Source of the DNA: an uncultured virus (IMG/VR IMGVR_UViG_3300038424_000856)
Lineage: Duplodnaviria > Heunggongvirae > Uroviricota > Caudoviricetes
IMG/VR virus record: IMGVR_UViG_3300038424_000856
Reading direction: 5' to 3' (one strand)
DNA: 64,000 nucleotides
Part shown: positions 1,011 to 17,387 of the stretch, piece by piece
Numbering within the stretch: position 1 is the stretch's first letter
Layout: each line of letters begins with the position of its first letter
The notes under the pieces: generated by a model
What the model was told of the DNA's origin: nothing
The model's input: the letters and a program-made list of their open reading frames with translations, nothing else
The model's database searches: none
Program-made: the position numbers and the translations under genes

Positions 1011-1119
1011 AGAGATAGACGAAAATCCGAAGATGGAGGTTCAATTCCTCCCTGCCCCTCTGGGGCGGTGGTGCAAATGGTTAGCATGTTGGACGCCCGG
1101 AACGACTGTGAAATCCTCT
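1011..1119 (+). ncRNA. Circularly permuted tRNA-like RNA (YrlA-type Y RNA candidate)
   Basis: Order is TCCGA(1026-30), T arm GGAGG-TTCAATT-CCTCC(1035-51), acceptor CTGCCCC-tct-GGGGCGG closed by a loop (1052-68), D arm GTGC-AAATGGTTA-GCAT, then TTGGA(1089-93) pairing with TCCGA. Confidence 0.75.
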
Positions 1120-1131
1120 TTAATTTCTTAA

Positions 1132-1160
1132 TTGACATAAATGCTTTAATGGTGTATAAT
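1132..1160 (+). promoter_or_regulatory. Sigma70-type early promoter
   Basis: TTGACA-N17-TATAAT, perfect consensus; ATG at 1167. Confidence 0.9.
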
Positions 1161-1166
1161 ATCAAT

Positions 1167-1448
1167 ATGAAAGTTATATTGCCGGTTAAAGAAATACCTG
1201 TTGGTTCTGTTGTAACAAAATTGAATGGGCAAAAGAAATATCAAGTAAGAGATAGAATTACTATTTATGATGAAGTGAAAAATTCATCAAGAGATATAAC
1301 ATTGGAAATGAATACAAGAGTTTTATGGTCTGTGGATTTGCCTATGTCGGTCAATATAATTTCAGGAGATACTGAAATGATATGGGATGCAGATTATAAT
1401 GCTCTTCAATCATATCTTTATGAAAAATATGAATTAGACCAAAAATAA
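1167..1448 (+). CDS. Hypothetical protein
   Basis: ORF 1068..1448 trimmed to the ATG after the promoter (MKVILPVKE...). Confidence 0.75.
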   Translation: MKVILPVKEIPVGSVVTKLNGQKKYQVRDRITIYDEVKNSSRDITLEMNTRVLWSVDLPMSVNIISGDTEMIWDADYNALQSYLYEKYELDQK

Positions 1449-1454
1449 TATTAG

Positions 1455-1531
1455 GGGGTGGTAGCTTAGCCGGATAAAGCGTCTGCCTGTCACGCAGAAG
1501 ACCGGGGGTTCGAGTCCCCTTCATCCCGCCA
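1455..1531 (+). tRNA. tRNA-Asp(GTC)
   Basis: Cloverleaf GGGGTGG/TCATCCC; anticodon arm TCTGC-CTGTCAC-GCAGA; G73-CCA. Confidence 0.95.
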
Positions 1532-1538
1532 ATTTAAT

Positions 1539-1613
1539 TCCCGCATGGTGTAGTGGTTTGCACGGTGGTCTTTGGAACCATAAGTGACGGCTCGAAACCG
1601 TAGGCGGGAGCCA
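1539..1613 (+). tRNA. tRNA-Gln(TTG)
   Basis: Anticodon arm GTGGT-CTTTGGA-ACCAT; T1-A72; G73-CCA; atypical T loop CTCGAAA. Confidence 0.85.
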
Positions 1614-1617
1614 TTTT

Positions 1618-1800
1618 ATGATAAGAATATTAAAAGTAAAATTGTTTTTGGGTTCGACCTTGGAAGAAATAGAAACAAAAATTTCTGATTGGTTATCCAA
1701 AGAAAAAATTTGTGTTGGAAATTATATGGATATTAAATTATCTAAATTGAGTGATGTTTATCAATTAATTCTTGTTTATGCTGAATTAATACAGGAGTAA
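1618..1800 (+). CDS. Hypothetical protein
   Basis: 60 aa ORF starting 4 nt after the tRNA CCA. Confidence 0.65.
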   Translation: MIRILKVKLFLGSTLEEIETKISDWLSKEKICVGNYMDIKLSKLSDVYQLILVYAELIQE

Positions 1801-1804
1801 AGTT

Positions 1805-2053
1805 ATGATGCAAGTAATAAGATGTGAAACTTGTGGTGGCGATACAATACCTTTGGGCGGTATTAGTGTTGATTTAACCCTAAATAAAAGTGAGTTTTGT
1901 AATCACTGTTACCGAACTAAAACAGACAAACAAGAACATTTCTTTTGTTCATTGCTTTGTTTTCATGAATATATGTTGAAGCTTGTTAATGGTGAAACAG
2001 AATTGAAATGGAAAGAGAGATTTCCACCCATTGCTATAGAAGTTAAAACTTAA
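1805..2053 (+). CDS. Small zinc-finger protein
   Basis: CETC, CNHC and FFCSLLC motifs; GGAG upstream. Confidence 0.7.
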   Translation: MMQVIRCETCGGDTIPLGGISVDLTLNKSEFCNHCYRTKTDKQEHFFCSLLCFHEYMLKLVNGETELKWKERFPPIAIEVKT

Positions 2054-2058
2054 TTTAT

Positions 2059-2132
2059 TGATGCGTGGTGTAATGTAGCGCCCCTGCCCTTGAAGCAGAA
2101 AGGTGTAAGTTCAAGTCTTACCGCATCAGCCA
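2059..2132 (+). tRNA. tRNA-Gln(TTG), second copy with C33
   Basis: TGATGCG/CGCATCA acceptor; loop CCTTGAA; T arm GTAAG-TTCAAGT-CTTAC; G73-CCA. Confidence 0.85.
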
Positions 2133-2138
2133 ATCTAC

Positions 2139-2312
2139 ATGAAATACGAAATACATACAAATATATTGTGGTTAGATGGAGTTCCAGCATTTCTTTTTTT
2201 ACCTAATGGAGAAAAAGACCCAATGACGCCGACAGGATGGAATTGGTATTGTAGTCATAAAGAAGAAATTGATAAATGGATTGAAAAACATTTCAAAAAA
2301 TTGCCAAAATAA
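2139..2312 (+). CDS. Hypothetical protein (57 aa, MKYEIHTNILWLDG...)
   Basis: ATG-TAA ORF read by hand, below the track cutoff, starting 6 nt after the tRNA CCA. Confidence 0.6.
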   Translation: MKYEIHTNILWLDGVPAFLFLPNGEKDPMTPTGWNWYCSHKEEIDKWIEKHFKKLPK

Positions 2313-2316
2313 TGAT

Positions 2317-2496
2317 ATGTGTGAACAAATTAAAGATAATTTTAACAAATTAAAATCACAATTTGTAAAATATCATCCATTTATGGAAATTGTTTCTGCT
2401 GAAGATATGATTGGACTAATTGGAAAATCTGAACAATTTGTGATAGAACAAATGAATAGATGGAAAATGACATATTATGGATGCTATGAAATTTAA
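2317..2496 (+). CDS. Hypothetical protein
   Basis: ORF 2269..2496 trimmed to the ATG after the previous stop. Confidence 0.6.
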   Translation: MCEQIKDNFNKLKSQFVKYHPFMEIVSAEDMIGLIGKSEQFVIEQMNRWKMTYYGCYEI

Positions 2497-2659
2497 GTGT
2501 AAATGTCCAAATTGTGGAACATTACGTGACCTTGAAGATTATTTGGTGAAACTTATACAAAGAAAGTATGTTAAAGGACCAACCAGAATTGGATTAGATT
2601 GTTGGTATTGCAATTTTTCATTTTGGGTAGCAGAGAAAGATTTAATAAAATCAGTATGA
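2477..2659 (+). CDS. Small zinc-ribbon protein
   Basis: CPNC...CWYC. Confidence 0.65.
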   Translation: MDAMKFKCKCPNCGTLRDLEDYLVKLIQRKYVKGPTRIGLDCWYCNFSFWVAEKDLIKSV

Positions 2660-2830
2660 TATGAAGTAAAAACCACATGGCCAACATTAAAAGGTAGATT
2701 AAGTCAACCATTAACAACGGAAGAAGAAGCATTACTTCAGTTAGAACAAATCGGTGGAGTAACTTTTTCAGAAAAGGCCATTAAGAAATTAAAGAAAATT
2801 AAAGAACGTCGATGTGATAAATTAAGAAAT

Positions 2831-2904
2831 GCCAGCATGATGTAACGGTAGCCTGCCAAGCCTGTACCTTGGACGTGAGGGTTCGATTCCTTCTGCTGGC
2901 TCCA
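2831..2904 (+). tRNA. tRNA-Thr(TGT) with C33
   Basis: GCCAGCA/TGCTGGC acceptor; CCAAG-CCTGTAC-CTTGG anticodon arm; T73-CCA. Confidence 0.85.
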
Positions 2905-2913
2905 AAAAAATTT

Positions 2914-3339
2914 ATGAAAAATATTTTAGTTTTTTGTTTAATGTTTTTAACAGCTATATCAATAGCTTGTTCATCTACTCTTACTATATACTATGGTGGT
3001 ATGCCATCAACCAATATGATAGATAGTATTAAAGTTTATTATGGCTCACAATTAAAGTCTTATACAAATTCTATTTCATTTCCAGTAAATACTTTAATAT
3101 ACATTACTAATGCTCCATTTAATGGATATAATCCAATATACTGCCGGGGTGAATATATGCCTTTTTATACTAAATTGCCAATCTCTGGCTTGATAAGTGG
3201 ACAACCATTTTATTATAAAATGAGTTATATATGGAAAGGTGGAAGTGAAGTATTAATGTGGGAATCGATGTGTGCATCTACAGTCCCAACTAATGATGTA
3301 GTACTTTTTCCACCAACCAATTTGCGAATAGTTGATTAA
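2914..3339 (+). CDS. Secreted fibronectin type III-like protein
   Basis: Signal peptide MKNILVFCLMFLTAISIAC; IKVYYG..YTN..ISGL..GQ.FY; C-terminal PPTNLRIV. Confidence 0.65.
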   Translation: MKNILVFCLMFLTAISIACSSTLTIYYGGMPSTNMIDSIKVYYGSQLKSYTNSISFPVNTLIYITNAPFNGYNPIYCRGEYMPFYTKLPISGLISGQPFYYKMSYIWKGGSEVLMWESMCASTVPTNDVVLFPPTNLRIVD

Positions 3340-3346
3340 ATAGTTT

Positions 3347-3769
3347 ATGAAAAAAATATTGATTACTTGTCTAATATGTCTATCAACATTGTTGGTTAAT
3401 TCAGCAATGGTAACTATTCATTTTATGACGGGATATAGTTTATCGCCCGTTAACCTTAAAATTTATTATGGTTCACAATTACAGACATATACAAATTATA
3501 TTATAGCATCTTTAAGTGCTAATAATATTGTTACTACAACTTATGCAGCCTATGATCAGGTGCAATGCAAAAGCGGAATCTGGAGTGCTCCTCATGTGGA
3601 TATTCCTATAGATGGTTTGATTTTAGGTCAACAATTTTTTGATGGCATTACTTTAATAAATTCTAATAGCGTTGAGTCTCCATTTTTATCTCAAGCGGTT
3701 TGCGGATTTACTGTTACTAATAATATAGACCAACCTCTTTCTCCAAATGGTTTGCGAATATCAAATTAG
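3347..3769 (+). CDS. Secreted fibronectin type III-like protein (paralog of 2914..3339)
   Basis: Signal peptide; KIYYGSQL..YTN, IDGL..GQ, VES.F, C-terminal PNGLRI. Confidence 0.65.
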   Translation: MKKILITCLICLSTLLVNSAMVTIHFMTGYSLSPVNLKIYYGSQLQTYTNYIIASLSANNIVTTTYAAYDQVQCKSGIWSAPHVDIPIDGLILGQQFFDGITLINSNSVESPFLSQAVCGFTVTNNIDQPLSPNGLRISN

Positions 3770-3815
3770 TTTGTTGCCATTTTAACTGTTTTTGATATAT
3801 TTATAGATAGTTTAT

Positions 3816-3907
3816 GGAAGTCAGGTAGATGTTGGTTTGCTGCGCCAGTCTTGAAAACTGGACCGGAATAAAATCCGGCAGGGGTTCGATTCCCTTGGCT
3901 TCCGCCA
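3816..3907 (+). tRNA. tRNA-Ser(TGA)
   Basis: CCAGT-CTTGAAA-ACTGG; long variable arm CCGGA..TCCGG; G73-CCA. Confidence 0.95.
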
Positions 3908-3911
3908 TTTT

Positions 3912-4003
3912 GGAAGTGTGGCCGAGAGGCTGATGGCGCAAGTTTGCTAAACTTGTGACCCTCTAACGGGGGTCCGTGGGTTCGAATCCCACCGCTTCCG
4001 CCA
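3912..4003 (+). tRNA. tRNA-Ser(GCT)
   Basis: CAAGT-TTGCTAA-ACTTG; long variable arm; G73-CCA. Confidence 0.95.
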
Positions 4004-4138
4004 ATTTATGAAAAATAAAAAGAAGCAAAAAAAACAGAAGCCGGTGGTAAAAGAACTTACAGTAAAAGGAACATTAGCTGCTTTTAAAGTGATTGTGGAT
4101 AATTTTACGCCAGCAGGTTATACGAGGATTTCTTGATT

Positions 4139-4312
4139 ATGAAAAATATAAAAAAATTATGGATTGAAAATATCAAAAAAGTGGCTCGTAAAAAATATAA
4201 GTTTTTAGAATCGGGTATTAATAATACCGATTGGGATATTTTTTGGGAAAGTTATGGTATTGATGGACTTTCACCGGAAGAAGCATTGAAAGAAGATTTT
4301 TCTAATACTTAA
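4139..4312 (+). CDS. Hypothetical protein (57 aa)
   Basis: Hand-read ORF MKNIKKLWIE...WESYGIDGLSPEEALKEDFSNT. Confidence 0.6.
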   Translation: MKNIKKLWIENIKKVARKKYKFLESGINNTDWDIFWESYGIDGLSPEEALKEDFSNT

Positions 4313-4385
4313 TATACGATAGCTTAATTTATTGGAAAAAGAAAGATGGTAAAATAAATTATCATTAAAAAATGAAAGAAAAATT

Positions 4386-4490
4386 ATGAATATGATATTG
4401 ACACCAATACTTGGTAGTACTATCTATATAGGAAGTGGAGTAGGTTTGGTTCTTTTGATAGTGGTTTTAATTTTAGTATTTAGACGTTAA
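4386..4490 (+). CDS. Small single-pass membrane peptide (34 aa)
   Basis: MNMILTPILGSTIYIGSGVGLVLLIVVLILVFRR. Confidence 0.55.
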   Translation: MNMILTPILGSTIYIGSGVGLVLLIVVLILVFRR

Positions 4491-4495
4491 GATAT

Positions 4496-4514
4496 GGTCG
4501 CTTAGTTTATTGGT
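4496..4514 (+). repeat. 19-nt direct repeat of the tRNA-Val(CAC) 5' end
   Basis: GGTCGCTTAGTTTATTGGT identical at 4496-4514 and 4684-4702. Confidence 0.9.
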
Positions 4515-4536
4515 GGAAAAAGTTGCCATCAATTTT

Positions 4537-4683
4537 ATGAATGATAAAACAAAAAAATTATCTGAAGATGTAAATGTTGTAAAAAATAATATTTCATTGG
4601 ATTATTTTGAAAAACTTAGTAAAATTAAAAATTTATTACTAACATATTTTTACGGAGATATATCCATTTTTGAAGAAAAATAA
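4537..4683 (+). CDS. Hypothetical protein (48 aa)
   Basis: Hand-read ORF whose TAA abuts the tRNA-Val start. Confidence 0.45.
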   Translation: MNDKTKKLSEDVNVVKNNISLDYFEKLSKIKNLLLTYFYGDISIFEEK

Positions 4684-4757
4684 GGTCGCTTAGTTTATTG
4701 GTAGAATAAAATCCTCACACGATTAAGAGATAGGTTCGATTCCTGTAGTGACCACCA
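4684..4757 (+). tRNA. tRNA-Val(CAC)
   Basis: GGTCGCT/AGTGACC acceptor; AATC-CTCACAC-GATT; A73-CCA. Confidence 0.9.
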
Positions 4758-4763
4758 ATTTAT

Positions 4764-4816
4764 GCCAGATAGCCCTGCAGGCAAATTCGTTTCATGAGCG
4801 AATTGTTCTGGCACCA
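4764..4816 (+). ncRNA. 53-nt T-armless mini-tRNA-like element with a CAT loop and ACCA end
   Basis: GCCAGA/TCTGGC-A-CCA; hairpin GCC-CTGCA-GGC; hairpin AATTCGT-TTCATGA-GCGAATT. Confidence 0.65.
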
Positions 4817-4823
4817 GTTTAAG

Positions 4824-4967
4824 TTTGTTAGAAAGTAGTGTACAGATACGATAAATAAATTGCACAGTTTAGTAGTAGCAACTATAAGGGTCTAATATGT
4901 TAAAGTTTTAGACACGAATTAAAACAAGAGATGGTGGAGAATCGGGATTCCGTCAGTTTCTAACAAA
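4824..4967 (+). ncRNA. Unnamed multi-hairpin RNA A
   Basis: Perfect 11-bp terminal helix TTTGTTAGAAA/TTTCTAACAAA enclosing about four hairpins; no ORF. Confidence 0.6.
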
Positions 4968-4975
4968 TAATGATT

Positions 4976-5076
4976 TGAGATACACGCAGCAATAAAACTT
5001 TGTCGGGCAACCGACTCCACGTTGTAGAGAACAACATTAAAAGGTTCCTCAGAAAAGAGTGTAAATCGGTATCTCG
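4976..5076 (+). ncRNA. Unnamed multi-hairpin RNA B (CAGCAA type)
   Basis: Terminal helix GAGATAC/GTATCTC, ACGCAGCAA, hairpins GTCGG-GCAA-CCGAC and GTTGT-AGAGA-ACAAC. Confidence 0.65.
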
Positions 5077-5086
5077 TTAATTTAAT

Positions 5087-5162
5087 CGGAGTGTCGCCTA
5101 GTGGCTATGGCGCTTGCTTTGGGAGCAAGATATCGGGCGTTCGAGTCGCCCCACTCCGACCA
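5087..5162 (+). tRNA. tRNA-Pro(TGG)
   Basis: CGGAGTG/CACTCCG; CTTGC-TTTGGGA-GCAAG; A73-CCA. Confidence 0.95.
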
Positions 5163-5204
5163 TTTATTGTATTTAATATGGATGGAGAATAAAACAATTT
5201 TAAT

Positions 5205-5284
5205 GTGAGTATGGCACCAGCGGCAACGGCGCTTCCCTTACACGGAAGTTTTTATCGCAGGTTCGAGTCCTGCTACTCACACCA
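5205..5284 (+). tRNA. tRNA-Val(TAC)
   Basis: GTGAGTA/TACTCAC; CTTCC-CTTACAC-GGAAG; A73-CCA. Confidence 0.92.
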
Positions 5285-5289
5285 ATTTT

Positions 5290-5472
5290 ATGAAAAATAG
5301 GATGTTAACATTATATAATTTTATTGATGAATTATCAAAAAAGGTTGAAAATAAAATCAAGAAAAATAAAATGTTAGGAGAAATATTATATTACAAATAT
5401 GATAATAAACTTCTCATTTATATTTTGATTAGTAGTATAGTGATTTCTGTTATTTTAACATTTTTGTCATGA
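5290..5472 (+). CDS. Small protein with a C-terminal transmembrane helix
   Basis: LLIYILISSIVISVILTFLS tail. Confidence 0.6.
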   Translation: MKNRMLTLYNFIDELSKKVENKIKKNKMLGEILYYKYDNKLLIYILISSIVISVILTFLS

Positions 5473-5636
5473 TTACTAAGTTTGAATGTAAAGATAAAAA
5501 ACGCTTTTCTACAAAGGAACAGGCAAATGAACATATTTATACATTAGTGATGGAATCTCTTGGTGGTGTAATTGAACTAAGGCCATATAAATGCAAGCAT
5601 TGCAAGGGGTACCACTTAACCAGTAAAGTAAAATGA
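5469..5636 (+). CDS. Small zinc-binding phage protein (55 aa)
   Basis: Hand-read ORF MITKFECKDKKRF...RPYKCKHCKGYHLTSKVK; ATGA overlaps with both neighbours. Confidence 0.7.
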   Translation: MITKFECKDKKRFSTKEQANEHIYTLVMESLGGVIELRPYKCKHCKGYHLTSKVK

Positions 5637-5833
5637 ATACTGAAACAGGACAATTAATAAATTTTGACGATCTTAAAAAATTACCACTTGAAGAACAAGT
5701 AAAATACACCGAAATTAAACGTGATTTGACCAAATTGGAAGAATTTAACAAACAAATCAGAATGTATTCCCCGTGCGGTTGTGGAAGTGGTAAAAAATTC
5801 AAATTTTGTTGTTACAAAAAACCAGTAAGATAA
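5633..5833 (+). CDS. SEC-C motif protein
   Basis: C-terminal SPCGCGSGKKFKFCC. Confidence 0.8.
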   Translation: MNTETGQLINFDDLKKLPLEEQVKYTEIKRDLTKLEEFNKQIRMYSPCGCGSGKKFKFCCYKKPVR

Positions 5834-5834
5834 A

Positions 5835-6104
5835 ATGATTTATATTTGTTCACAATGCATAGAACAGCAAAAATTAGGACCTTATACTATTAAGGCTCAA
5901 GCAGCAGGTGTTCAATTTAAACAAGGATTGTGTTTGCGTCATTATGTGAAAGCTGCACTTGATAGAGGTAGAAGTAAAAAGCAAATTGAAATAGGTATAA
6001 GGGCAAATGCCTCAACCGGGTTTAAACCACCTGTAGATTTGAAAAAATATCCAAGTTTGATTAAACAATATAAACAAGGAATATTTAAAGAACCAGAAGT
6101 GTAA
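5835..6104 (+). CDS. Hypothetical zinc-binding protein
   Basis: CSQC...GLCLRH. Confidence 0.65.
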   Translation: MIYICSQCIEQQKLGPYTIKAQAAGVQFKQGLCLRHYVKAALDRGRSKKQIEIGIRANASTGFKPPVDLKKYPSLIKQYKQGIFKEPEV

Positions 6105-6107
6105 TTT

Positions 6108-6196
6108 GCTACCATGCTGGAATTGGCATACAGACCAGCCTGAGAAGTTGGGGTCCGTAATTGGACTTGTGGGTTCGAATCCCTCTGGTAGCACCA
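6108..6196 (+). tRNA. tRNA-Leu(GAG)
   Basis: GCTACCA/TGGTAGC; CCAGC-CTGAGAA-GTTGG; long variable arm; A73-CCA. Confidence 0.95.
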
Positions 6197-6210
6197 ATTT
6201 TATATAGTGA

Positions 6211-6252
6211 ATTGTGTCAATAAAATTTTGTTATTGACACGATTTTTGTTTT
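6211..6252 (+). terminator. Probable intrinsic terminator
   Basis: TTGTGTCAATAA/TTATTGACACGA hairpin followed by TTTTTGTTTT. Confidence 0.6.
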
Positions 6253-6257
6253 AAGGC

Positions 6258-6290
6258 TTGACATTTTTATGTATTTGATTTATATTTATA
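6258..6290 (+). promoter_or_regulatory. Sigma70 promoter overlapping the putative late motif, upstream of RNase P RNA
   Basis: TTGACA-N17-TATATT; ATATTTATA at 6282-6290. Confidence 0.75.
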
Positions 6291-6313
6291 GATAAAGAGT
6301 TCTTTGAAATTTT

Positions 6314-6599
6314 TTTGTGACATAAGTGACCTTACGCTAACCTAAATGTGTTAGAGGAAGTTCGCGGCATCACAGCAGATGATTGGGAGAATCAGTAAAT
6401 GTTGCAACCGAGCCGTAGCCAGAGAAAAACTGGTAGTGAGCCTTGAAAGGGGTTAATCGGTATGATTCGTTAATACCACAAATTAGATGCAAGTGCAAAT
6501 AGGGACAAGAGTAGTGCTGCTCGTTATAAAGTCTGGGTAATAGCACGCTTAGAGAAATGTAAGGATAAAACAGAACCGCGGCTATGTCTGTGTCATAAA
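6314..6599 (+). ncRNA. rnpB: RNase P RNA (compact, phage-encoded)
   Basis: P1 TTTGTGACATA/TGTGTCATAAA; P2 CCTTAC/GTAAGG; P4 strands GAGGAAGTTCGCGG (6354) and AACAGAACCGCGGCTAT (6569); GCAAGTGCAAATAGGG (6489) and TAGAGAAATG resemble conserved bacterial segments. Confidence 0.88.
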
Positions 6600-6606
6600 T
6601 TTTATT

Positions 6607-6682
6607 GGGGTCTTAGCTCAATTGGTAGAGCGTCTCAATGGCATTGAGAAGGTCAGGGGTTCGAATCCCCTAGGCTCCACCA
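6607..6682 (+). tRNA. tRNA-Ala(GGC)
   Basis: G3:U70; TCTCA-ATGGCAT-TGAGA; A73-CCA. Confidence 0.96.
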
Positions 6683-6686
6683 GTTT

Positions 6687-6842
6687 TAGATGTGGTAACA
6701 GCAATTAAATATTGTTAAAACAAAAAACCCCAAAAGGGAATAAATCCTGCGAAACAGGTCGTAGCGGTGGCTACGCTAAAAACGCTCAACAGGGGTAAGT
6801 TGTAAAAAGAGCTTCGGAGATAACCGTAAATTCCGCATCTAG
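6687..6842 (+). ncRNA. Unnamed multi-hairpin RNA C (CAGCAA type)
   Basis: Terminal helix TAGATGTGG/CCGCATCTA, TAACAGCAA, hairpins CCTG-CGAAA-CAGG, CGTAGC-GGTG-GCTACG, CAAC..GTTG, CGG-AGATAA-CCG. Confidence 0.65.
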
Positions 6843-6899
6843 TATATTCTTTCTCTTCGTGAGAAAGATGAAGTTTTCCTCTCGGAAGGGAAACTTTAT

Positions 6900-6973
6900 G
6901 GGGTCATCGTTCAACGGGAGGACATCTCATTCGCAATGAGAAAATCCGGGTTCGATTCCCAGTGGCTCCACCA
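6900..6973 (+). tRNA. tRNA-Ala(CGC)
   Basis: G3:U70; TCTCA-TTCGCAA-TGAGA; A73-CCA. Confidence 0.93.
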
Positions 6974-6994
6974 ATTTAGAGTATTACAAAATAT

Positions 6995-7068
6995 TGATTA
7001 CTGATGTAATGGTAGCATGACGCTCTCTGAAAGCGTTCGTCCATGTTCGAGTCATGGGTAATCAGCCA
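6995..7068 (+). tRNA. tRNA-Gln(CTG)
   Basis: TGATTAC/GTAATCA; ACGCT-CTCTGAA-AGCGT; G73-CCA. Confidence 0.95.
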
Positions 7069-7073
7069 ATTTT

Positions 7074-7238
7074 AACAACGGATACCTACAGTTAAATCCT
7101 GACGTATTTGATACTCAGGACAATCACGGGTAATAAGTAGGTAATTAAAGTTTACCGAAGACCGTGTTAGGAGGCCACAATCGAAAGCAGTGGCTTTGCC
7201 GTTGGACGAGATTCCAACAGGTTATTAAATCCGTTGTT
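7074..7238 (+). ncRNA. Unnamed multi-hairpin RNA D
   Basis: Perfect 10-bp terminal helix AACAACGGAT/ATCCGTTGTT enclosing TCCTGA/TCAGGA, CACGG/CCGTG, GGCCAC/GTGGCT and GTTGGA/TCCAAC stems. Confidence 0.7.
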
Positions 7239-7241
7239 TTA

Positions 7242-7333
7242 GGATGTGTGGCAGAGTGGCTTATAGCGCTTGCTTGGAGAGCAAGAGGTCGGTGAAAATC
7301 GGCCCGGAGGTTCAAATCCTTCCACATCCGCCA
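7242..7333 (+). tRNA. tRNA-Ser(GGA)
   Basis: CTTGC-TTGGAGA-GCAAG; long variable arm; G73-CCA. Confidence 0.95.
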
Positions 7334-7356
7334 ATTTATTTGAAATTATAAATAAA

Positions 7357-7587
7357 ATGTTTTTAAAATGGGTAAAATTTTTATTTGCTAAAAAATCAAA
7401 AAACCCTGAAAAGGTAGTAATTGGTTTTGTATTACCAGATGGCAAAAAATTTAATATCGAAGCAATAAAACCATCAACAAATCCATTTGCTTGTAAAATT
7501 CATCCAGATTATATTCCTGTAAGTCCGCCAACAAATAATTGTAATAGTTGTTGGGAATATTATAGTAAAGGCCGTAGTAAATGGTAA
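7357..7587 (+). CDS. Hypothetical zinc-binding protein
   Basis: ORF 7270..7587 trimmed past the tRNA; CKIHP..CNSCW. Confidence 0.6.
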   Translation: MFLKWVKFLFAKKSKNPEKVVIGFVLPDGKKFNIEAIKPSTNPFACKIHPDYIPVSPPTNNCNSCWEYYSKGRSKW

Positions 7588-7588
7588 T

Positions 7589-7756
7589 ATGAATCAGAGT
7601 TATTATGACGATGATTACCCTGAAACAAATAGGGATAAGACTTTAGTGCCACGAAAAGTTTCTCTTTGGTGTGGTTGTGATAGAGTCTTAATAAGACCGT
7701 GGAAAAAGTGCCCCATTTGTGGCAGACGAAATGGCAGAAAACGATTTAAACGGTAA
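7589..7756 (+). CDS. Small zinc-ribbon protein (55 aa)
   Basis: Hand-read MNQSYYDDDYPE...WCGCD...KCPICG; the stop lies inside the first 5 nt of tRNA-Ser(CGA). Confidence 0.65.
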   Translation: MNQSYYDDDYPETNRDKTLVPRKVSLWCGCDRVLIRPWKKCPICGRRNGRKRFKR

Positions 7757-7845
7757 GTTGGCCGAGTGGACTAAGGCGCCAGTTTCGAAAACTGGAGGTC
7801 GGCAAAAATGCTGACCCGTAGGTTCAAATCCTACACTTACCGCCA
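7752..7845 (+). tRNA. tRNA-Ser(CGA)
   Basis: CCAGT-TTCGAAA-ACTGG; long variable arm; G73-CCA. Confidence 0.95.
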
Positions 7846-7859
7846 ATTTTATATTCTTC

Positions 7860-7888
7860 TTGACTTTTCTTTCTTTTTTTGATATCTT
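7860..7888 (+). promoter_or_regulatory. Sigma70-type promoter
   Basis: TTGACT-N17-TATCTT; ATG at 7896. Confidence 0.65.
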
Positions 7889-7895
7889 TATCTTT

Positions 7896-8105
7896 ATGAA
7901 TTTTCAACCACCAATCATATATGGAATTTATAATCTAACTTTGAATAAATGGGTTCAAGATGCAGATTCAGATGTTGGTGCAGATGTTAAATGTTATAGT
8001 CTATCTAAAGCAGAAAAATTATTGGAAAGAGTAAATGATTTGAAAATGCTTAATCCAAATAATAGAAACATGCAATTTGAAATAAGGCCTTATAAGGATT
8101 TATGA
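7896..8105 (+). CDS. Hypothetical protein
   Basis: ORF trimmed to MNFQPPII after the promoter. Confidence 0.65.
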   Translation: MNFQPPIIYGIYNLTLNKWVQDADSDVGADVKCYSLSKAEKLLERVNDLKMLNPNNRNMQFEIRPYKDL

Positions 8106-8713
8106 AACTTAAAATTATAGGTGATGGGGCGTTTGGTTCTTTTCTTAAAGAATTACTTGCTCCTCATTTTGAAATTTGTGATGATGCAGAAAGTGTTATT
8201 CTTGCTATTCCTATATCTGCATACCCATCTTGGGGAGCACAATTGTCTGATAAACATCTAATAAATGTATGTTCGGTTCAAAAACCATCAACTGATATAC
8301 TTCTTTCGTCAACAGACAGAGTTACAAGTATTCATCCTTTATTTGGAAGGCGAACACCCGAAGATAAACGGAATTCAATTTTGACATATATAGGAACAAA
8401 CAATGATACATGGGATTCAGGATTAGATTGTCAATTTGAATTCATAAAAATATTTGGAAAAGTTTCTAAAATAATAGATACTGATCAAGAGGGTAAAAAG
8501 TTTACACCTGAATCGCATGACCAGCTTATGGCTAAAACCCATGTAGCTGCCGTTATGGCAGCTAAACAATTAAAGGTATTTGTTGACAGAGTTAAAGATG
8601 TTCCTGATGAATTGATTCCTCATAGTTTTCGTATGATGCGAGAGTTTGTAAAAACTCTTGATGATATGCCGAAAGGAACTATTGAAAGTATTATGGCAAA
8701 TCCATATTTTTAA
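8102..8713 (+). CDS. tyrA: Prephenate/arogenate dehydrogenase-like protein
   Basis: Rossmann IIGDGAFG, VILAIP, NVCSVQ, SIHPLFG, TPESHDQLMA. Confidence 0.75.
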   Translation: MKLKIIGDGAFGSFLKELLAPHFEICDDAESVILAIPISAYPSWGAQLSDKHLINVCSVQKPSTDILLSSTDRVTSIHPLFGRRTPEDKRNSILTYIGTNNDTWDSGLDCQFEFIKIFGKVSKIIDTDQEGKKFTPESHDQLMAKTHVAAVMAAKQLKVFVDRVKDVPDELIPHSFRMMREFVKTLDDMPKGTIESIMANPYF

Positions 8714-8770
8714 TAAAACCATTAAATAAAATAAGTTGATTATAAAAACCCATTGTTGTATCATTTAGAT

Positions 8771-9091
8771 ATGACAATGGGTGTTTTTATTTTAGTTGTT
8801 ATAGCAATGACATTTTATGGATTTGGTGAATATTTTTCAAAATTATTTGCTAATATAGGTGGTTCAAAATTTGCTCTTCTAGCTCTTCTTTTCTATATTT
8901 TAACTTCTATCTGTTTTTTACCAGCCTTAAAAAAGCTTAATTCACTTTCTATTTTAGGAACTATTTGGAATGTAGGCTATATGATAATTACATTGGGAAT
9001 AGGTATTTTAATATTTCATGAAACTCTTACCATACTTCAAATTATAGGTATAATATTTGGTTTTATTGCTATAATTTTATTGTCAATATAA
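8771..9091 (+). CDS. SMR/DMT-family small membrane transporter
   Basis: About 106 aa, four hydrophobic helices, GEYFSK, IWN, FHETLT..IIGI; promoter TTGATT-N17-TATCAT at 8736-8764. Confidence 0.8.
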   Translation: MTMGVFILVVIAMTFYGFGEYFSKLFANIGGSKFALLALLFYILTSICFLPALKKLNSLSILGTIWNVGYMIITLGIGILIFHETLTILQIIGIIFGFIAIILLSI

Positions 9092-9144
9092 TAAATTGAT
9101 TTTCTCTTAATCTGTGTTAGTATGCTTCACAGAAGGAAAAATAT

Positions 9145-9828
9145 ATGATTGACAAAACTAATTTGACTGATGCTGAAATTCAAGAAAATTACCAAGAATT
9201 TTTGAAATTTGTTGGTGATACTTTCATTGGTAAAAGAAAAGATAAACTTCTAAAAATGTATTCTGATGAAGAAGATTCGTTGGGATTACCTTTAGCAACT
9301 GCACCTGCATCAATGTGTGAACATTTTCATCTGTGTTATCCGGGTGGATATTTGCAACATGTTATGCATGTAATCAGATTATCTTTTGCAGGAAAGAAAT
9401 TATTTGAAATTGCTGGAGCAAATATTGATTTTACAGATGAACAAATGGTATTTGCAGCTATGCATCACGATTTAGGAAAACTTGGTGACCCTGAATTTGG
9501 TGAATATTATGCTCCACAAGACCAAGATTGGAAGTATAAGAAGGGTGAATTTTACAAAATGAATCCTAATCTTCCTTACATGGAAGTTACTGATAGAGCT
9601 ATATTTCTACTTCAAAAGTATGGTGTAGTTTATGATTGGAAGGAATACCTTGGTATTAAATTATCAGATGGTTTGTTCAATGATTCCAATGAAAAATATC
9701 TAAAACAATATAATCCTGAAATGTATTTATCAACTAATTTACCACGCATAATTCATACTGCTGATTATACAGCATGTAGGTCAGAATATGACAGGTGGCA
9801 TTATGTTAAAGCTGAAGAAAAGCTCTAA
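9145..9828 (+). CDS. HD-domain phosphohydrolase
   Basis: HLCYPGGYLQH, AMHHDLGK, IIHTAD. Confidence 0.85.
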   Translation: MIDKTNLTDAEIQENYQEFLKFVGDTFIGKRKDKLLKMYSDEEDSLGLPLATAPASMCEHFHLCYPGGYLQHVMHVIRLSFAGKKLFEIAGANIDFTDEQMVFAAMHHDLGKLGDPEFGEYYAPQDQDWKYKKGEFYKMNPNLPYMEVTDRAIFLLQKYGVVYDWKEYLGIKLSDGLFNDSNEKYLKQYNPEMYLSTNLPRIIHTADYTACRSEYDRWHYVKAEEKL

Positions 9829-9849
9829 TAATTCCATGAATAAAAAACA

Positions 9850-9886
9850 TTCCCCGTCTGAAATATTCAGATGGGAGAATTTTTTT
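9850..9886 (+). terminator. Intrinsic terminator (possibly bidirectional)
   Basis: CCCGTCTGAA/TTCAGATGGG stem with a T7 run after and an A run before. Confidence 0.75.
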
Positions 9887-10041
9887 GTGCAATAGAAGAC
9901 TGCTAACGCGGATTAAACATCCGACATGAAATTTCATATTGTCGAAACAAGTATATCCACTATTATTTTTCACTATTATAAGTATCATTGCTACAAATGA
10001 AATAGTGTTGACTTTTAACAGACCTGTGATATGATATAATT

Positions 10042-10365
10042 ATGCCTGTAATAAAGGATGATAAAATATTGCTGATTCGTTGTAAATGCCATGGGCATAT
10101 TCTGGAAATTACTTACGATGATTATTGGATTGAAGAAGGTGTAGAACCTGATTTTTATGTTTCCGTATGGAATCAATCTCCATGTCCACTTTCTTTTTCT
10201 TACCGCCTTAAACTTGTTTGGGACTTAATTCGTGGAAAAGACCTTAGTGGTGATGATGTAATAATAGAAAAAGCAGATGCACAATCGATTGTAAATTTCT
10301 TAAACAAACAAATAAGAGCAAATTATGTCAAACAAAAAAAGAACAAAGGAAATGCAATCAGATGA
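10042..10365 (+). CDS. Hypothetical protein
   Basis: 107 aa ORF behind TTGACT..TGTG-N-TATGAT (10008-10035). Confidence 0.7.
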   Translation: MPVIKDDKILLIRCKCHGHILEITYDDYWIEEGVEPDFYVSVWNQSPCPLSFSYRLKLVWDLIRGKDLSGDDVIIEKADAQSIVNFLNKQIRANYVKQKKNKGNAIR

Positions 10366-10618
10366 AATCCTTACTTTAGAAGTACCCATAGCCGAAATAA
10401 TGAAACAAGAGGAAATTATTTGGTCGCCGGGAGATACAGCGCCACGTTATGTTATTGTTCGTGGTGGATTAAGAGTATCTGACAAAGATTATCCAGAACG
10501 GGATGACCCAAGGGCAATTTCTGAAATGAATTTTTGGAACAGAGTAATCAGTCGTTGGCCTGATGGAACGAAAATTGAAATCGTTCAATATGATAAAAAG
10601 AAGCATCGCATTTGGTAA
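10325..10618 (+). CDS. Hypothetical protein
   Basis: 97 aa ORF overlapping the previous one. Confidence 0.7.
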   Translation: MSNKKRTKEMQSDEILTLEVPIAEIMKQEEIIWSPGDTAPRYVIVRGGLRVSDKDYPERDDPRAISEMNFWNRVISRWPDGTKIEIVQYDKKKHRIW

Positions 10619-10650
10619 AAAAATAAAAATATTTATCTAAATTTATACGT

Positions 10651-10686
10651 AACGTGGTAGAGAAATCTACCACGTTTTTTCTTTTT
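10651..10686 (+). terminator. Intrinsic terminator
   Basis: AACGTGGTAGA-GAAA-TCTACCACGTT plus a T run. Confidence 0.85.
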
Positions 10687-10719
10687 GTACGTCTTTGCCG
10701 ATATTTATTCAATGAAGAT

Positions 10720-11073
10720 ATGGTAGAAAAAAATAATAAAAATATACCAACTCTATATGTTATACCATCTGATAATAAGGAATTGCAATTTTTTTCCAAA
10801 AAGTTTAAGTTTGACATGATGGAGCAAGTCATAAACATGATTGCGTTTGCTATTGAACATAATTTACCTCTTGTTGAAGTATTTCAGTTTAAAAATTCTG
10901 ACTTTGTTATAACATTATCAGAGAGAGATTATTTGACTAACCTTAACAATATTTATTCTTACTATGTAGAAAAAGAAGCTTACGAATATTGTCCAAAGGT
11001 AGTCAAGTTACAGAAAATTCTAAAGGAAAAGTCCGTAATAAATACTGATGAAAACCAAACGAATCGACACTAA
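10720..11073 (+). CDS. Hypothetical protein
   Basis: ORF trimmed to the ATG downstream of the terminator; C-terminal EAYEYC helix. Confidence 0.7.
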   Translation: MVEKNNKNIPTLYVIPSDNKELQFFSKKFKFDMMEQVINMIAFAIEHNLPLVEVFQFKNSDFVITLSERDYLTNLNNIYSYYVEKEAYEYCPKVVKLQKILKEKSVINTDENQTNRH

Positions 11074-11779
11074 TGAAGTTAAGGACATAAGCCCTATTAT
11101 CCCACAACGAAATAAGATTAAAAATCTTCTATCAATTTATCAAAGAAATCTTAATGAAAAGCAAAAAAATTTTTTGGAAATTGCCATGGACAAGAATACA
11201 AAAATTGTATTCGTATATGGGCCTGCTGGCACGTCCAAAACGTATATGGCAATATATGCTGCACTTACACTGGTCAATCAAAGAAAAGTAAGTGATTTAA
11301 TCTACATTCGTTCAGCAGTAGAATCATCAGAAGCTAAACTTGGATTCTTACCCGGAGAAGCTGACGAAAAAATGGCACCATATTTAGCTCCTTTAACGGA
11401 TAAATTAGTAGAATTATTACCAAAAAATGATATAGATATTTTAAAAAAAGAAAATAGAATTTCATCTATCCCAGTTGGATTTCTTAGAGGGTTAAATTGG
11501 AATGCTAGAGTAATAATTTCTGATGAAGCGCAGAACATGACTTTTAAAGAATTATTTACATTGATTACTAGGGTAGGAGAATTTAGTAAAATGTTTATTT
11601 TGGGTGACCCTGAACAATCGGACCTCAACGGTAAAACCGGATTTCTTAAAATGATATCTTATTTTGATGATGAAGAATCGAGAGCTAATGGAATTCAAGT
11701 GTTTAGATTTACCGATAATGATATTGTAAGAAGTGGATTGGTTCAATTCATTGTCAAAAAAGTTAAAAAAACGATTTGA
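11048..11779 (+). CDS. phoH: PhoH-family ATPase
   Basis: GPAGTSKT, LGFLPG, FLRG, DEAQN, TRVGE, GDPEQSD, DIVRS. Confidence 0.95.
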   Translation: MKTKRIDTNEVKDISPIIPQRNKIKNLLSIYQRNLNEKQKNFLEIAMDKNTKIVFVYGPAGTSKTYMAIYAALTLVNQRKVSDLIYIRSAVESSEAKLGFLPGEADEKMAPYLAPLTDKLVELLPKNDIDILKKENRISSIPVGFLRGLNWNARVIISDEAQNMTFKELFTLITRVGEFSKMFILGDPEQSDLNGKTGFLKMISYFDDEESRANGIQVFRFTDNDIVRSGLVQFIVKKVKKTI

Positions 11780-11801
11780 GAGTCTATTTATAGGTTATAT
11801 T

Positions 11802-12794
11802 ATGTCTGATAATGAAAAAGTATCTTCCTTACTGGAATTAGATGCACCAGAAATACAACCAAATGATGTTTTTCTAGTCACAGATATGAGTCAACGGGAG
11901 TCTAAACAACTTCCAGTAGGACAATTATTACTATTTATTGAAAGTAGTGGAAGTTTTTTGGCTTATGATTCTGCTCATGCAGATACGGCCTCTTATATTT
12001 TGGCTAGTGGTATTGATGGTATTATACCTCTTGCTACTAATGCGTCACAATCTATATCATCAAGTTGGGCGAGTCTTGCTGATACAAGTTCTTATGCTAT
12101 TACAGCATCATCTTCTTCATATTCTGCATTTTGTTCAATTACATCAGATATTGCTAATACTGCTTCATTTTTGTCATATACTGGAACACCTAATGGTACA
12201 GCTTCGTATGCTATAACTTCCCTTACATCAAATACTGCTCAAAATGCCGCGTTTTTAATTTATTCCAGTGGAAGTAATAATGGAACATCATCGTATTCTG
12301 TAACGTCGCTCACTACTATTTCAGCATCGTATTCCAATACATCATCATATTCCAATACGTCATTATATTCTGATACTTCAAGTATAGCAATATCATGTAA
12401 TACCGCACAGACAGCAAGTTTTTACAATGGCCCAAGATTTGCTCCTACTTTTATAGCACCCGTTACTATTTTTTCTGGTACAGGACAATCTGCATTTACA
12501 ACATTTGATTGTAGTCCTTATATTCCGGTTGGAACCAGCGTGGTTATTTTAGATGCATGGTCTGTAAATGGTAATACAAATACTACCGGATTTGTTTATA
12601 TAAGACCAGATTCCTTTTTTACTGCTTCAAATTATGTATTGATAGCATTTCGTTCAGCAGGCAGTGGTGATAATGTAGCAGTTGGTGCACAAGGAAGTTT
12701 TCCTCTTTCTTCAATTAGTCCTTTAACATTTCAATTCAGTGTGACACAAACAGCAGATGGTGGAACAACGATTCGTTTAATAGGATATTACTAA
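11802..12794 (+). CDS. Tail fibre-like protein with ASYA repeats
   Basis: N-terminal head shared with the next two ORFs; TASY/SSYA repeats; C-terminal IRLIGYY tip. Confidence 0.65.
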   Translation: MSDNEKVSSLLELDAPEIQPNDVFLVTDMSQRESKQLPVGQLLLFIESSGSFLAYDSAHADTASYILASGIDGIIPLATNASQSISSSWASLADTSSYAITASSSSYSAFCSITSDIANTASFLSYTGTPNGTASYAITSLTSNTAQNAAFLIYSSGSNNGTSSYSVTSLTTISASYSNTSSYSNTSLYSDTSSIAISCNTAQTASFYNGPRFAPTFIAPVTIFSGTGQSAFTTFDCSPYIPVGTSVVILDAWSVNGNTNTTGFVYIRPDSFFTASNYVLIAFRSAGSGDNVAVGAQGSFPLSSISPLTFQFSVTQTADGGTTIRLIGYY

Positions 12795-12807
12795 TAATAA
12801 CAATTTT

Positions 12808-14826: not shown

Positions 14827-14854
14827 TACTTATACTTAAAAGGAATATAAAAAT

Positions 14855-15802: not shown

Positions 15803-15837
15803 AATAGTTATAATATATTACTACTGATGAATTCATA

Positions 15838-16839: not shown

Positions 16840-16944
16840 TACTTGCCAAAATGAATAACATATATTAAACTCAATTATATTAAAAATTTTGATATTTAAT
16901 TAGTTATTCAACTATATATGACGCTGATAATCCTTATGTAATTA

Positions 16945-17082
16945 ATGATGAATCAATCTGATATAAATTGTATAGTAGAACTATTAAGTAAAGCCATAAA
17001 ACAAAATGATTGGGATGCCGTGGCAGAAGCTCTTGAATATATTCAAGAATTTCAAGATGACCCCCAATATGAAGAAGAATAA
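16945..17082 (+). CDS. Small acidic protein (45 aa)
   Basis: Hand-read ORF MMNQSDINCIVELL...DDPQYEEE. Confidence 0.5.
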   Translation: MMNQSDINCIVELLSKAIKQNDWDAVAEALEYIQEFQDDPQYEEE

Positions 17083-17085
17083 CAT

Positions 17086-17379
17086 ATGTTAATTTCTTTA
17101 GTTATATTGTTGTTAATATTATTAATAGTATCTGTTGTTTTCAACTTTCTCCTTTTAAAAGCAGGTGAACGACAACTTGTAATAAATGAATTGTATATAA
17201 GCTGGATATCTGAATGGAGAATACAAGTTCTAAAGACTTGGGCACATATGAAAATGCTTGATGATAAGCAAATGTTTGAAAAAGACGATGAAGTTGGCAT
17301 TGTATTTCAAGATATGAAAGACCTTATACAGAATCTTAATAATAGAACTGAAGAAACCATAGAAGAAGAAGGAGAATAA
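17086..17379 (+). CDS. Membrane-anchored protein
   Basis: N-terminal TM; FEKDDEVG motif. Confidence 0.75.
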   Translation: MLISLVILLLILLIVSVVFNFLLLKAGERQLVINELYISWISEWRIQVLKTWAHMKMLDDKQMFEKDDEVGIVFQDMKDLIQNLNNRTEETIEEEGE

Positions 17380-17387
17380 AATTTTCT

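Follow-up and report, generated by a model that had tools for sequence, protein, structure and literature searches.

The DNA analyzed here (hereafter, the window) is a stretch of 64,000 nucleotides (nt) from an uncultured member of the Caudoviricetes, IMG/VR record IMGVR_UViG_3300038424_000856, which measures 365,299 bp and has a CheckV completeness of 100%. The window encodes the large terminase subunit, a portal protein, and a subunit of the baseplate wedge, and we therefore take the virus to be a tailed huge phage. An array of 15 same-strand tRNA genes (1455..7845, predicted with ARAGORN) encloses a 284-nt homolog of the bacterial type A RNase P RNA (6315..6598, plus strand, as are all of the array elements described below), with a promoter-like site upstream and tRNA-Ala(GGC) downstream. 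RNase P RNA is the ribozyme that trims the 5' end of new tRNAs and, to our knowledge, is treated as a universal cellular ribozyme. An earlier reading of the letters alone (the original prediction) had proposed a compact, phage-encoded RNase P RNA at 6314..6599. That identification is borne out by a highly significant match to the Rfam model of the type A RNA and by an intact catalytic-domain fold; the locus stands, and its ends move to 6315..6598 when set by the pairing of helix P1 or to 6318..6599 in the Rfam alignment.

The Rfam model RF00010 (RNaseP_bact_a), run with permissive filters, aligned to 6318..6599 from end to end (model positions 1-367). The window RNA scored 44.1 bits (E = 2.5e-12 in a search of 801 nt), and across the whole 365,299-bp record it was the sole match of the model (E = 2.7e-13). 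Within the RNase P clan, RNaseP_bact_a was the best-scoring family; five lower overlapping matches from the same clan were suppressed and are not attributed to the window locus. The covariance-model search named as a check in the original prediction thus returned a significant full-length match, but not one that reaches the gathering score: 44.1 bits is far under the 100 bits set for RF00010, and Rfam run on the window at the gathering threshold recovered 13 tRNA matches and no RNase P RNA. Since the match stands at 44 bits against a cutoff of 100, threshold-based annotation overlooks such genes. On an inner covariance model of 126 positions (R1), built from members of the family described below, the window RNA scores 89 bits.

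The elements of a type A catalytic core can be placed one by one. P1 (6315-6324/6589-6598), P2 (6330-6335/6559-6564), the P3 hairpin (6337-6341/6350-6354), and both strands of P4 (6359-6367/6576-6583, with a bulged U at 6362) lie where they had first been put, as judged from the helix table and the RF00010 alignment. P4 is framed by its customary junctions: GAGGAA of J3/4 leads into the 5' strand, which begins at 6359 (together 6354..6367), and ACAGAA of J2/4 into the 3' strand, CCGCGGCU (together 6570..6583, placed by the RF00010 and 18-sequence alignments). The core continues with P5 (6368-6371/6486-6489), the P6 pseudoknot between 6373-6377 and the loop of P17 (6515-6519), P7a (6380-6383/6482-6485; helix table), and P7 (6384-6386/6476-6478; helix table and isolated folding). 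Beyond P7 stands a stub hairpin (6389-6393/6464-6468) that holds a 70-nt variable insert (6394..6463). A further arm (6493..6546) consists of P15 (6493-6496/6543-6546), P16 (6503-6506/6531-6534), and P17 (6509-6511/6520-6522), and is followed by J18/2, AGAGAAAUG, and the P2 3' strand (together 6551..6564). The internal loop between P15 and P16 carries GGU at 6536-6538, the triplet that in RNase P RNA pairs with the 3'-CCA of tRNA; here, this pairing is predicted. The corresponding "UGG" motif is described as the CCA-binding element of RNase P RNA in PMC8172020 (cited, like PMC4919922, PMC4238349, and the preprint 10.1101/2023.06.13.544163 below, from portions of the text).

Relatives of this RNA were sought in viral and metagenome contigs. 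The first collection used both window-type P4 strands at set spacings, in single 30-nt gap windows. In metagenome contigs, 10 of the 21 loci with both strands proved to be the RNA; the other 11 are not RNase P RNA, eight being copies of a high-GC coding gene and three chance matches. This coding gene (GC content of 0.66-0.77) is a recurrent false positive that has both motifs at a fixed spacing of 157-160 nt (loci L131, L135, L136, L139, L141, L144, L147, L149, and L155, one of them in an Actinophytocola metagenome-assembled genome). Viral contigs yielded no match at a P4-strand spacing of 212-242 nt, and a plain 14-mer scan of them returned at least 119 loci, mostly chance matches; one candidate, L119, was discarded as a coding-region false positive. 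Four more viral contigs hold an RNA identical to that of the window. The first 12 distinct sequences span GC contents of 0.37-0.69 and, in 11 of the 12, lengths of 239-355 nt, the ends of L133 being tentative; nine of them match RF00010, at 39.6-50.4 bits.

Because these 12 members had been chosen by their P4, we carried out a second scan without a fixed P4 5' strand, in which the only fixed elements were the J18/2 and J2/4 of the family and the two leading bases of the P4 3' strand. Of its 20 loci, seven were known members or a fragment of one, six were new, five were chance matches, and two were the ends of a single contig with a canonical P4 3' strand. The new members (L164, L166, L167, L168, L174, and L175) were confirmed by the inner model, by Rfam, or by both. 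An additional member, L258, was recovered with the inner model in a relative identified by its terminase, where RF00010 had overlooked it. The family comprises at least 18 distinct sequences, and where its members register on RF00010, they do so at 39.6-67.4 bits, likewise under the gathering score. Two of the carriers, the 305,833-bp record with L077 and the 488,051-bp record with L166, are complete huge phages with direct terminal repeats; their tRNA matches number 46 and 64, respectively, and the 250,813-bp record with L174 has 43. The two-ended contig of the second scan, IMGVR_UViG_3300045988_174042 (46,105 bp), bears the J18/2-J2/4 motif at both ends (L159 and L165) together with the canonical P4 3' strand, and L159 scores 37.3 bits on RF00010; the pair probably stems from a terminal repeat or from a circular contig that was opened within a further RNase P RNA gene of phage origin.

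The mini-form pattern, i.e., both window-type P4 strands separated by a gap of 150-180 nt, matched once in the genomes of 185,579 prokaryote species (one genome each), and this sole cellular match, L155, is not RNase P RNA; since only gaps of 150-180 nt were covered, the 204-nt spacing of the window RNA itself and full-size cellular forms would escape that scan. A blastn search of GenBank with 6200..6700 matched 108 records, none covering at least 80% of the query, and all 40 of the matches listed fall on the tRNA-Ala part; a megablast search of GenBank phages with 8000..30000 gave no match. In environmental reads, 23 DNA runs from peat or wetland hold at least half of the sampled words of 6100..6900, 10 of these runs being possible sources, and one run of this set, X11, holds an identical 721-nt contig.

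We tested the fold on the first 12 sequences with 60 hand-placed pairs, both pseudoknots included. In a MAFFT alignment, 76.2% of the cells were paired, compared with 36.7-45.7% in slid controls, in which the partners were moved by 1-3 columns; the covariation score was 0.348 against 0.094-0.136, pairs with double changes numbered 35 against 16-29, and none of 500 shuffles reached the observed value on any of five measures. An alignment guided by the inner model gave 79.9% paired cells (37.0-45.0% when slid) and a covariation score of 0.380 (0.073-0.128), and it leaves some helices shifted by insertions and deletions, e.g., P16 in L077 and L146. Because both alignments misplace some helices, these pairing figures are conservative. 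Among individual helices, P2 is paired in 87.5% of its cells with double changes at five of its six pairs, and P5 is paired in 91.7% with double changes at all four. A strand table, in which a script verified the order and complementarity of the strands and from which P1-P3 of L133, P16/P17 of L148, and P15 of L126 are left out, lists nine distinct versions of P1 (in 11 of the 12 members), nine of P2, 10 of P3, nine of P5, nine complementary versions of the P6 pseudoknot (in all 12 members), five of P7, 11 of the stub hairpin, five of P15, eight of P16, and seven of P17. Minimum-free-energy (MFE) folding of isolated arms recovered 65 of 65 assigned pairs in P3, 101 of 106 in P7 plus the stub hairpin, and 111 of 118 in P15-P17, the outer helices being partly circular evidence because the arm ends were chosen by hand. 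The fold is confirmed beyond chance, the structure being kept with different sequences in the relatives. Conservation extends to the unpaired core: GAGGAA, the bulged U and the C next to it, ACAGAACC, and the AGA..AUG of J18/2 and P2 are invariant in 18 sequences, and the GGU (GGT in the DNA) of the P15/P16 loop is invariant in the 12-sequence alignments.

No part of RNase P RNA is more conserved than P4, and it is here that the window RNA departs from the bacterial consensus. The original prediction had reported a compensated variant of this helix; its strands are exactly as first written, and a position-by-position check against the Rfam consensus shows that the geometry is kept (three pairs, the bulged U, and five pairs), with four pairs changed on both sides. 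P4 covaries when the members gathered without a fixed 5' strand are included: in 18 sequences, 12 of which had been picked by their P4 sequence, 143 of the 144 P4 cells are paired, with compensatory double changes at four of the eight pairs, and the bulged U is kept in all 18; slid controls pair at 23.6-55.6%. On four of the five measures, none of 500 shuffles came up to the observed value; on the fifth (further pair types), one did. In L258, P4 reads CGAUA/UAUCG and replaces two G-C pairs that all of the other 18 sequences share.

The specificity domain (S-domain) is reduced to the stub. The RF00010 alignment deletes the S-domain positions of P10/P11, J11/12, J12/13, and P11'/P10', and when 6380..6486 was scanned alone, no RNase P model of any type matched at E ≤ 10. 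P18, between P15 and J18/2, is a zero-length segment of the window RNA in the same alignment; at its place, other members have one or two hairpins, often with GNRA loops, as judged by eye. In minimal members, the whole stretch bounded by the two P7 strands, these included, measures just 30-32 nt. L039 equals L125 except that its stub hairpin is extended at the tip by ~105 nt (L039 83..203), and in a contig of a close relative, assembled from the peat metatranscriptome X24, 112 other letters replace 6391..6464 (74 nt) of the window. The tips of otherwise near-identical RNAs hold a 7-nt loop, 70 nt, ~105 nt, or 112 nt, and because these inserts differ among such close sequences, the tip resembles an insertion hot spot at which inserts come and go. 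By this pattern, the insert is probably not essential to the enzyme, and it could possibly have a role in substrate docking.

The flanks of the RNA suggest a transcription unit of its own. Upstream, tRNA-Leu(GAG) (6108..6196) is followed by a terminator-like hairpin (6209..6245; a 15-pair stem and a T run) that divides the preceding unit from that of the RNase P RNA. Next comes a sigma-70-type promoter (6258..6286) with TTGACA at 6258..6263, a 17-nt spacer, and TATATT at 6281..6286 (11/12 match). The earlier claim of a dedicated sigma-70 promoter holds as regards this match and its conservation in relatives, but promoter-like sites as a class are not enriched over shuffled sequence (3 versus 4.0 ± 2.2). 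The layout of -35 element, spacer, -10 element, and leader is kept upstream of L029, L039/L150, and L126, i.e., in four lineages with the window, and reads GCTTGACA, ~16-17 nt, TATAGT (TATATT in the window), a few bases, and AGTTCTTTGA, with P1 13-17 nt on. The 5' leader (6298..6314), AGTTCTTTGA(A/G)A and a short U-rich run up to P1, is common to the window, L029, L039/L125/L150, and L126, and L077 has the variant AGTTCTTTTTGA; this leader is likely the transcription start region. Elsewhere in the genome, at position 236,694 (+), a second promoter-like site has the same GGCTTGACATTTTT start as that at window position 6258, and sites of the GGCTTGACATTTTT type may be a recurrent promoter type of this phage. 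A separate observation concerns L126. Some 50 nt upstream of its P1, after the conserved leader and before the functional P1/P2, lies a stretch very similar to the P1-P2 5' strands found in the window group (L150, for example) but without their 3' partners; it looks like the relic of a former 5' end that a rearrangement displaced.

On the other side, tRNA-Ala(GGC), with an encoded CCA (6607..6682), starts 8 nt past the RNA, and no terminator-like site was found between the two. The same tRNA lies 1-3 nt past the RNA in L029, L039, L125, and L150. A same-strand tRNA lies 0-8 nt from the RNA in L174 and in eight of the first 12 members collected; it is downstream in six of these nine, and in five of the six it is tRNA-Ala(GGC). 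In L133, a tRNA-Ser lies ~15 nt downstream of the tentative 3' end. The window RNA is probably cotranscribed with tRNA-Ala(GGC), and because of this probable cotranscription with the adjoining tRNA, cleavage at the 5' end of the tRNA would set the 3' end of the RNA. The gap that follows, from tRNA-Ala(GGC) to tRNA-Ala(CGC) (6683..6899, plus strand, 217 nt), is itself strongly structured (MFE, -65.6 kcal/mol; z = -5.59; none of 200 shuffles as good), with two strong hairpins at its end and no noteworthy Rfam match at E ≤ 10, and may represent an additional structured RNA within the array.

The phage as a whole encodes 53 tRNAs and a transfer-messenger RNA (tmRNA), and CCA is encoded in 53 of these 54 genes. 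The description of its tRNAs as atypical is not supported, given this encoded CCA and the fact that 13 of the 15 window tRNAs pass the Rfam tRNA gathering score, at 38.5-67.8 bits. The tmRNA is 404 nt long (genome positions 260,388-260,791), and ARAGORN also predicts a tRNA with the anticodon CUA (labeled Pyl; 266,814-266,888), which could be an amber suppressor, both genes lying upstream of the window; since the long open reading frames (ORFs) of the window are open under table 11, any recoding of TAG would lie outside the window. A six-frame search of the phage genome for the RNase P protein RnpA (PF00825) gave no match at E ≤ 10; as a control, the search was positive in 10 of 14 genomes. 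Among 26 ORFs compared with Pfam, RNA-related matches were limited to PhoH (11048..11779 in the window) and an RlaP-type RNA-repair nucleotidyltransferase (59755..60981). Because neither RnpA nor a recognizable cofactor among these 26 ORFs is available to the phage, borrowing of the host RnpA is the simplest assumption, and we consider it a reasonable inference. Elsewhere in the genome, there are three ORFs of the RNA-ligase family (PF09414; 126,528-127,007 [-], 189,025-189,528 [+], and 212,753-213,343 [+]) and an enzyme of the PolyA_pol/CCA-adding family (8,900-9,346 [-]), and RtcB was not found in the phage genome. Together with RlaP and PhoH, the ligases and the PolyA_pol/CCA-adding enzyme would make up a sizeable kit for RNA repair and processing.

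On these comparisons, the window RNA is genuine and conserved, a variant of a known ribozyme that is carried by a phage. As to its function, which we infer from strong structural evidence, the reading we favor, with a probability of about 0.7, is that it is a miniature type-A-like RNase P RNA, expressed from its own promoter, that cuts the 5' leaders of the phage tRNAs and tmRNA with the help of the host protein. It would be transcribed from the sigma-70-like, i.e., host-type, promoter together with tRNA-Ala(GGC) 8 nt downstream and would fold into a complete catalytic domain (C-domain) comprising P1-P5, P15-P17, the P4/P6 pseudoknots, the bulged U, and the GGU. The S-domain, which normally docks the tRNA elbow, would have been cut to a stub with a variable insert. 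As an endonuclease, the RNA would remove the 5' leaders of the phage's own 53 tRNAs and tmRNA, reading its substrates through the acceptor stem and the genome-encoded CCA and not through the elbow formed by the T and D loops, and it would borrow the host RNase P protein, the phage being without RnpA. The encoded CCA in 53 of 54 genes matches an enzyme that keeps the CCA-binding GGU but is without elbow-reading modules. In the available parts of PMC4919922, the active site of RNase P is housed in P4, and an isolated C-domain is reported to cleave pre-tRNA with or without RnpA, at a lower rate and affinity.

Several observations weigh against this reading. Besides the score below the gathering threshold and the selection of most members by P4 noted above, RF00010 does not report L126, L133, or L146 at E ≤ 0.01, and some copies are imperfect: P1 is weakened in L143, P1-P3 of L133 are not resolved, and one P4 pair is mismatched in L175. 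The P4 5' strand of the window RNA is off the consensus at four upper-case Rfam positions, and because P4 leaves the consensus, activity cannot be assumed. The window RNA is without CR-II and CR-III, the modules through which the S-domain binds the tRNA elbow; these modules touch the D and T loops of tRNA (PMC4919922), and the same source gives loss of S-domain modules as cutting affinity and rate in bacterial enzymes. No known RNA-binding cofactor was found in the comparison of the 26 ORFs (25 in 1068..12794 and one at 59755..60981) with Pfam. RF00010 found the gene in 1 of 18 terminase-related records, a figure that is no measure of prevalence because 16 of the 18 are 9-36% complete and RF00010 overlooked one copy; in a complete relative, G006 (34 tRNA matches; terminase 53% identical), neither RF00010 nor the inner model gave a match. 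Because G006 has no detectable copy, the gene looks accessory, and not required, in the tRNA-rich phages of this group. Finally, evidence of expression comes from one low-depth contig (3.76), which belongs to a relative and was assembled from an RNA library in which DNA could be present.

That contig (359 nt; depth, 3.76; Logan contigs of X24) is 90-95% like the window RNA, and its differences fit the fold, e.g., T to C at 6534, which turns a G-U into a G-C pair in P16. It closes on itself: its opening 49 letters, equal to 6547..6595, are followed by a 12-letter linker, then by 6316..6390, by the 112 replacing letters, and by 6465..6576. In the linker, the initial five letters look like the short 3' trailers that precede the tRNA in the family, and the remaining seven look like the tail of the conserved leader. 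In the X24 run, the flanks 6100..6315 and 6596..6649 are without cover, which we do not use as evidence. The closure possibly reflects a circularized RNA, tandem gene copies in the relative, or an assembly artifact. According to part of PMC4238349, some archaea have a circular RNase P RNA, a possible precedent; here, the circle is one reading of a single low-depth contig. In its fullest form, which we consider unlikely, such a reading would make the phage RNA a self-matured, exonuclease-proof, covalent ring that processes tRNA 5' ends independently of the host RNA subunit and for which the "invariant" P4 sequence is dispensable. An RNase P cut at the 5' end of the adjoining tRNA would generate the 3'-OH end of the RNA, a cut in the conserved 5' leader would generate its 5' end, and one of the three RNA-ligase-family enzymes would join the two, closing P1 with a 12-nt loop. 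If this were true, the freely drifting P4 would imply that the "invariant" bacterial P4 sequence is not needed for catalysis.

Returning to the reading of a linear, tRNA-processing enzyme that uses the host protein, we weighed four alternatives. The best surviving of these, itself rather improbable, retains an active ribozyme and changes its targets, which might be junctions of the polycistronic, closely spaced tRNA array, the tmRNA precursor, tRNA-like or hairpin-CCA RNAs of phage or host, or its own precursor. The loss of S-domain modules with retention of the CCA-binding GGU would suit such a shift, as would the placement of the RNA within 0-8 nt of a tRNA and the presence of the tmRNA and of the strongly structured gap at 6683..6899 (z = -5.59). 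However, the phage tRNAs look canonical and carry CCA, which makes them the simplest substrates, and no other substrate is indicated in this analysis. More doubtful is a noncatalytic mimic that retains the face to which the protein binds and serves as a sponge or competitor for the host RnpA or another host factor, stopping or redirecting the maturation of host tRNAs. The lack of RnpA in the phage, the conserved P2-P3, J18/2, and J2/4 regions, and a P4 off the bacterial consensus are compatible with this idea, but the compensated P4 geometry, the invariant bulged U, and the P6 pseudoknot speak for selection on catalysis and substrate features beyond protein binding, and the GGU of the CCA loop is kept and is matched by the encoded CCA in 53 of 54 genes.

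Of slightly lower standing still, and in our view very improbable, is an enzyme free of the host protein, either RNA-only or with an unrecognized phage cofactor in place of both RnpA and the missing S-domain. No RnpA was found in the phage genome, the tRNA region holds many small ORFs of unknown function, and the drift of P4 at highly conserved Rfam positions could reflect another protein environment; on the other hand, the Pfam scan of 26 ORFs yielded no candidate protein, the regions flanking P4 and P2/P3 are near the bacterial consensus, and RnpA, while dispensable for C-domain cleavage in vitro, improves it (PMC4919922, in the part cited). That the RNA is a functionless, decaying fragment of a captured host rnpB is scarcely credible: the Rfam score below threshold, the loss of the S-domain and P18, and the absence from the complete relative G006 would fit decay, but in at least 18 distinct sequences, ranging from 37 to 69% GC, compensatory changes in all of the helices maintain the fold, the unpaired core nucleotides are invariant, the promoter is conserved, and the mini-form pattern (gap of 150-180 nt) was matched only once in 185,579 species' genomes, by a locus that is not RNase P RNA.

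A conserved family of phage RNase P RNAs would add a ribozyme to the translation-related genes of large phages. It speaks to an old question, namely, how much of the RNase P RNA is needed for function, by supplying natural bacterial-type RNAs of ~240-355 nt that are without the elbow-reading domain and whose P4 drifts by compensation with the bulged U kept. Their short transcripts make several matters testable: the minimal core, the role of the S-domain in vivo, the key nucleotides of P4, and the involvement of the host protein. For engineering, the family is also a source of compact RNase P scaffolds. In the full-text literature searched, we found no paper on a phage-encoded RNase P RNA, a provisional result as most subscription journals and supplements were outside its scope; the main text of a survey of huge phages (PMC7162821) leaves RNase P unmentioned.

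Among known systems, the closest is the bacterial type A RNA (RF00010; the M1 RNA of Escherichia coli, encoded by rnpB, and that of Thermotoga maritima), with which the window RNA shares P1-P5, P15-P17, the P4/P6 pseudoknots, the GAGGAA and ACAGAA flanks of P4, the bulged U, J18/2, and the GGU of the P15/P16 loop. It differs in being without P10-P14, CR-II/III, and P18, in a P4 that is remodeled and variable among relatives, and in being encoded by a phage without RnpA; typical bacterial type A RNAs measure 340-420 nt (PMC4919922). The RNase P RNA of Pyrobaculum ("type P"), which is without nearly the whole S-domain (PMC4919922, citing Lai et al. 2010), is likewise a natural RNA that consists essentially of the catalytic domain alone. 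However, it is archaeal and cellular and works with archaeal proteins, whereas the phage RNA is type-A-like, with the GGU of the P15 loop and the P6 pseudoknot; we treat the resemblance as convergent reduction, a functional likeness without common membership. Constructs of the isolated C-domain (Green 1996; Loria and Pan 2001; Wu et al. 2012, as cited in the available text of PMC4919922) provide a laboratory precedent for the proposed action of the phage RNA, but they are engineered, whereas the phage family is natural and conserved and has its own stub and insert at the point of deletion.

The RNAs of candidate phyla radiation (CPR) bacteria (Lui et al. 2021, PMC8172020) also fall under the Rfam thresholds, are without P12-P14/P18, and needed manual refolding, as given in the portion of that paper cited. 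They are, however, sole copies in cells, and some are without the UGG, i.e., CCA-binding, motif (PMC8172020), whereas the phage RNAs keep the GGU, have lost more of the S-domain, and are set in phage tRNA arrays. Theta ribozymes, minimal ribozymes resembling that of hepatitis delta virus, are comparable in that they are also encoded by phages beside tRNA genes and are proposed to confer independence from host tRNA-processing enzymes (10.1101/2023.06.13.544163). These are small, self-cleaving RNAs with an unrelated fold, for which removal of the 3' trailer is proposed, and the same preprint, in the part cited, treats the maturation of tRNA 5' ends by RNase P as a host function.

Nearest to the window family in setting is L156, a 243-nt mini RNase P RNA in a 202,737-bp viral contig, which is likewise flanked by tRNAs and combines an intact C-domain with a reduced S-domain but has a canonical bacterial P4. 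It scores 84.9 bits on RF00010 and 18.5 bits on the inner model of the window family; because of this low score and its canonical P4, we regard it as a separate lineage or a distant branch. As judged from these sequences, the mini RNase P RNAs of phages are a wider class, of which the window family is one branch.

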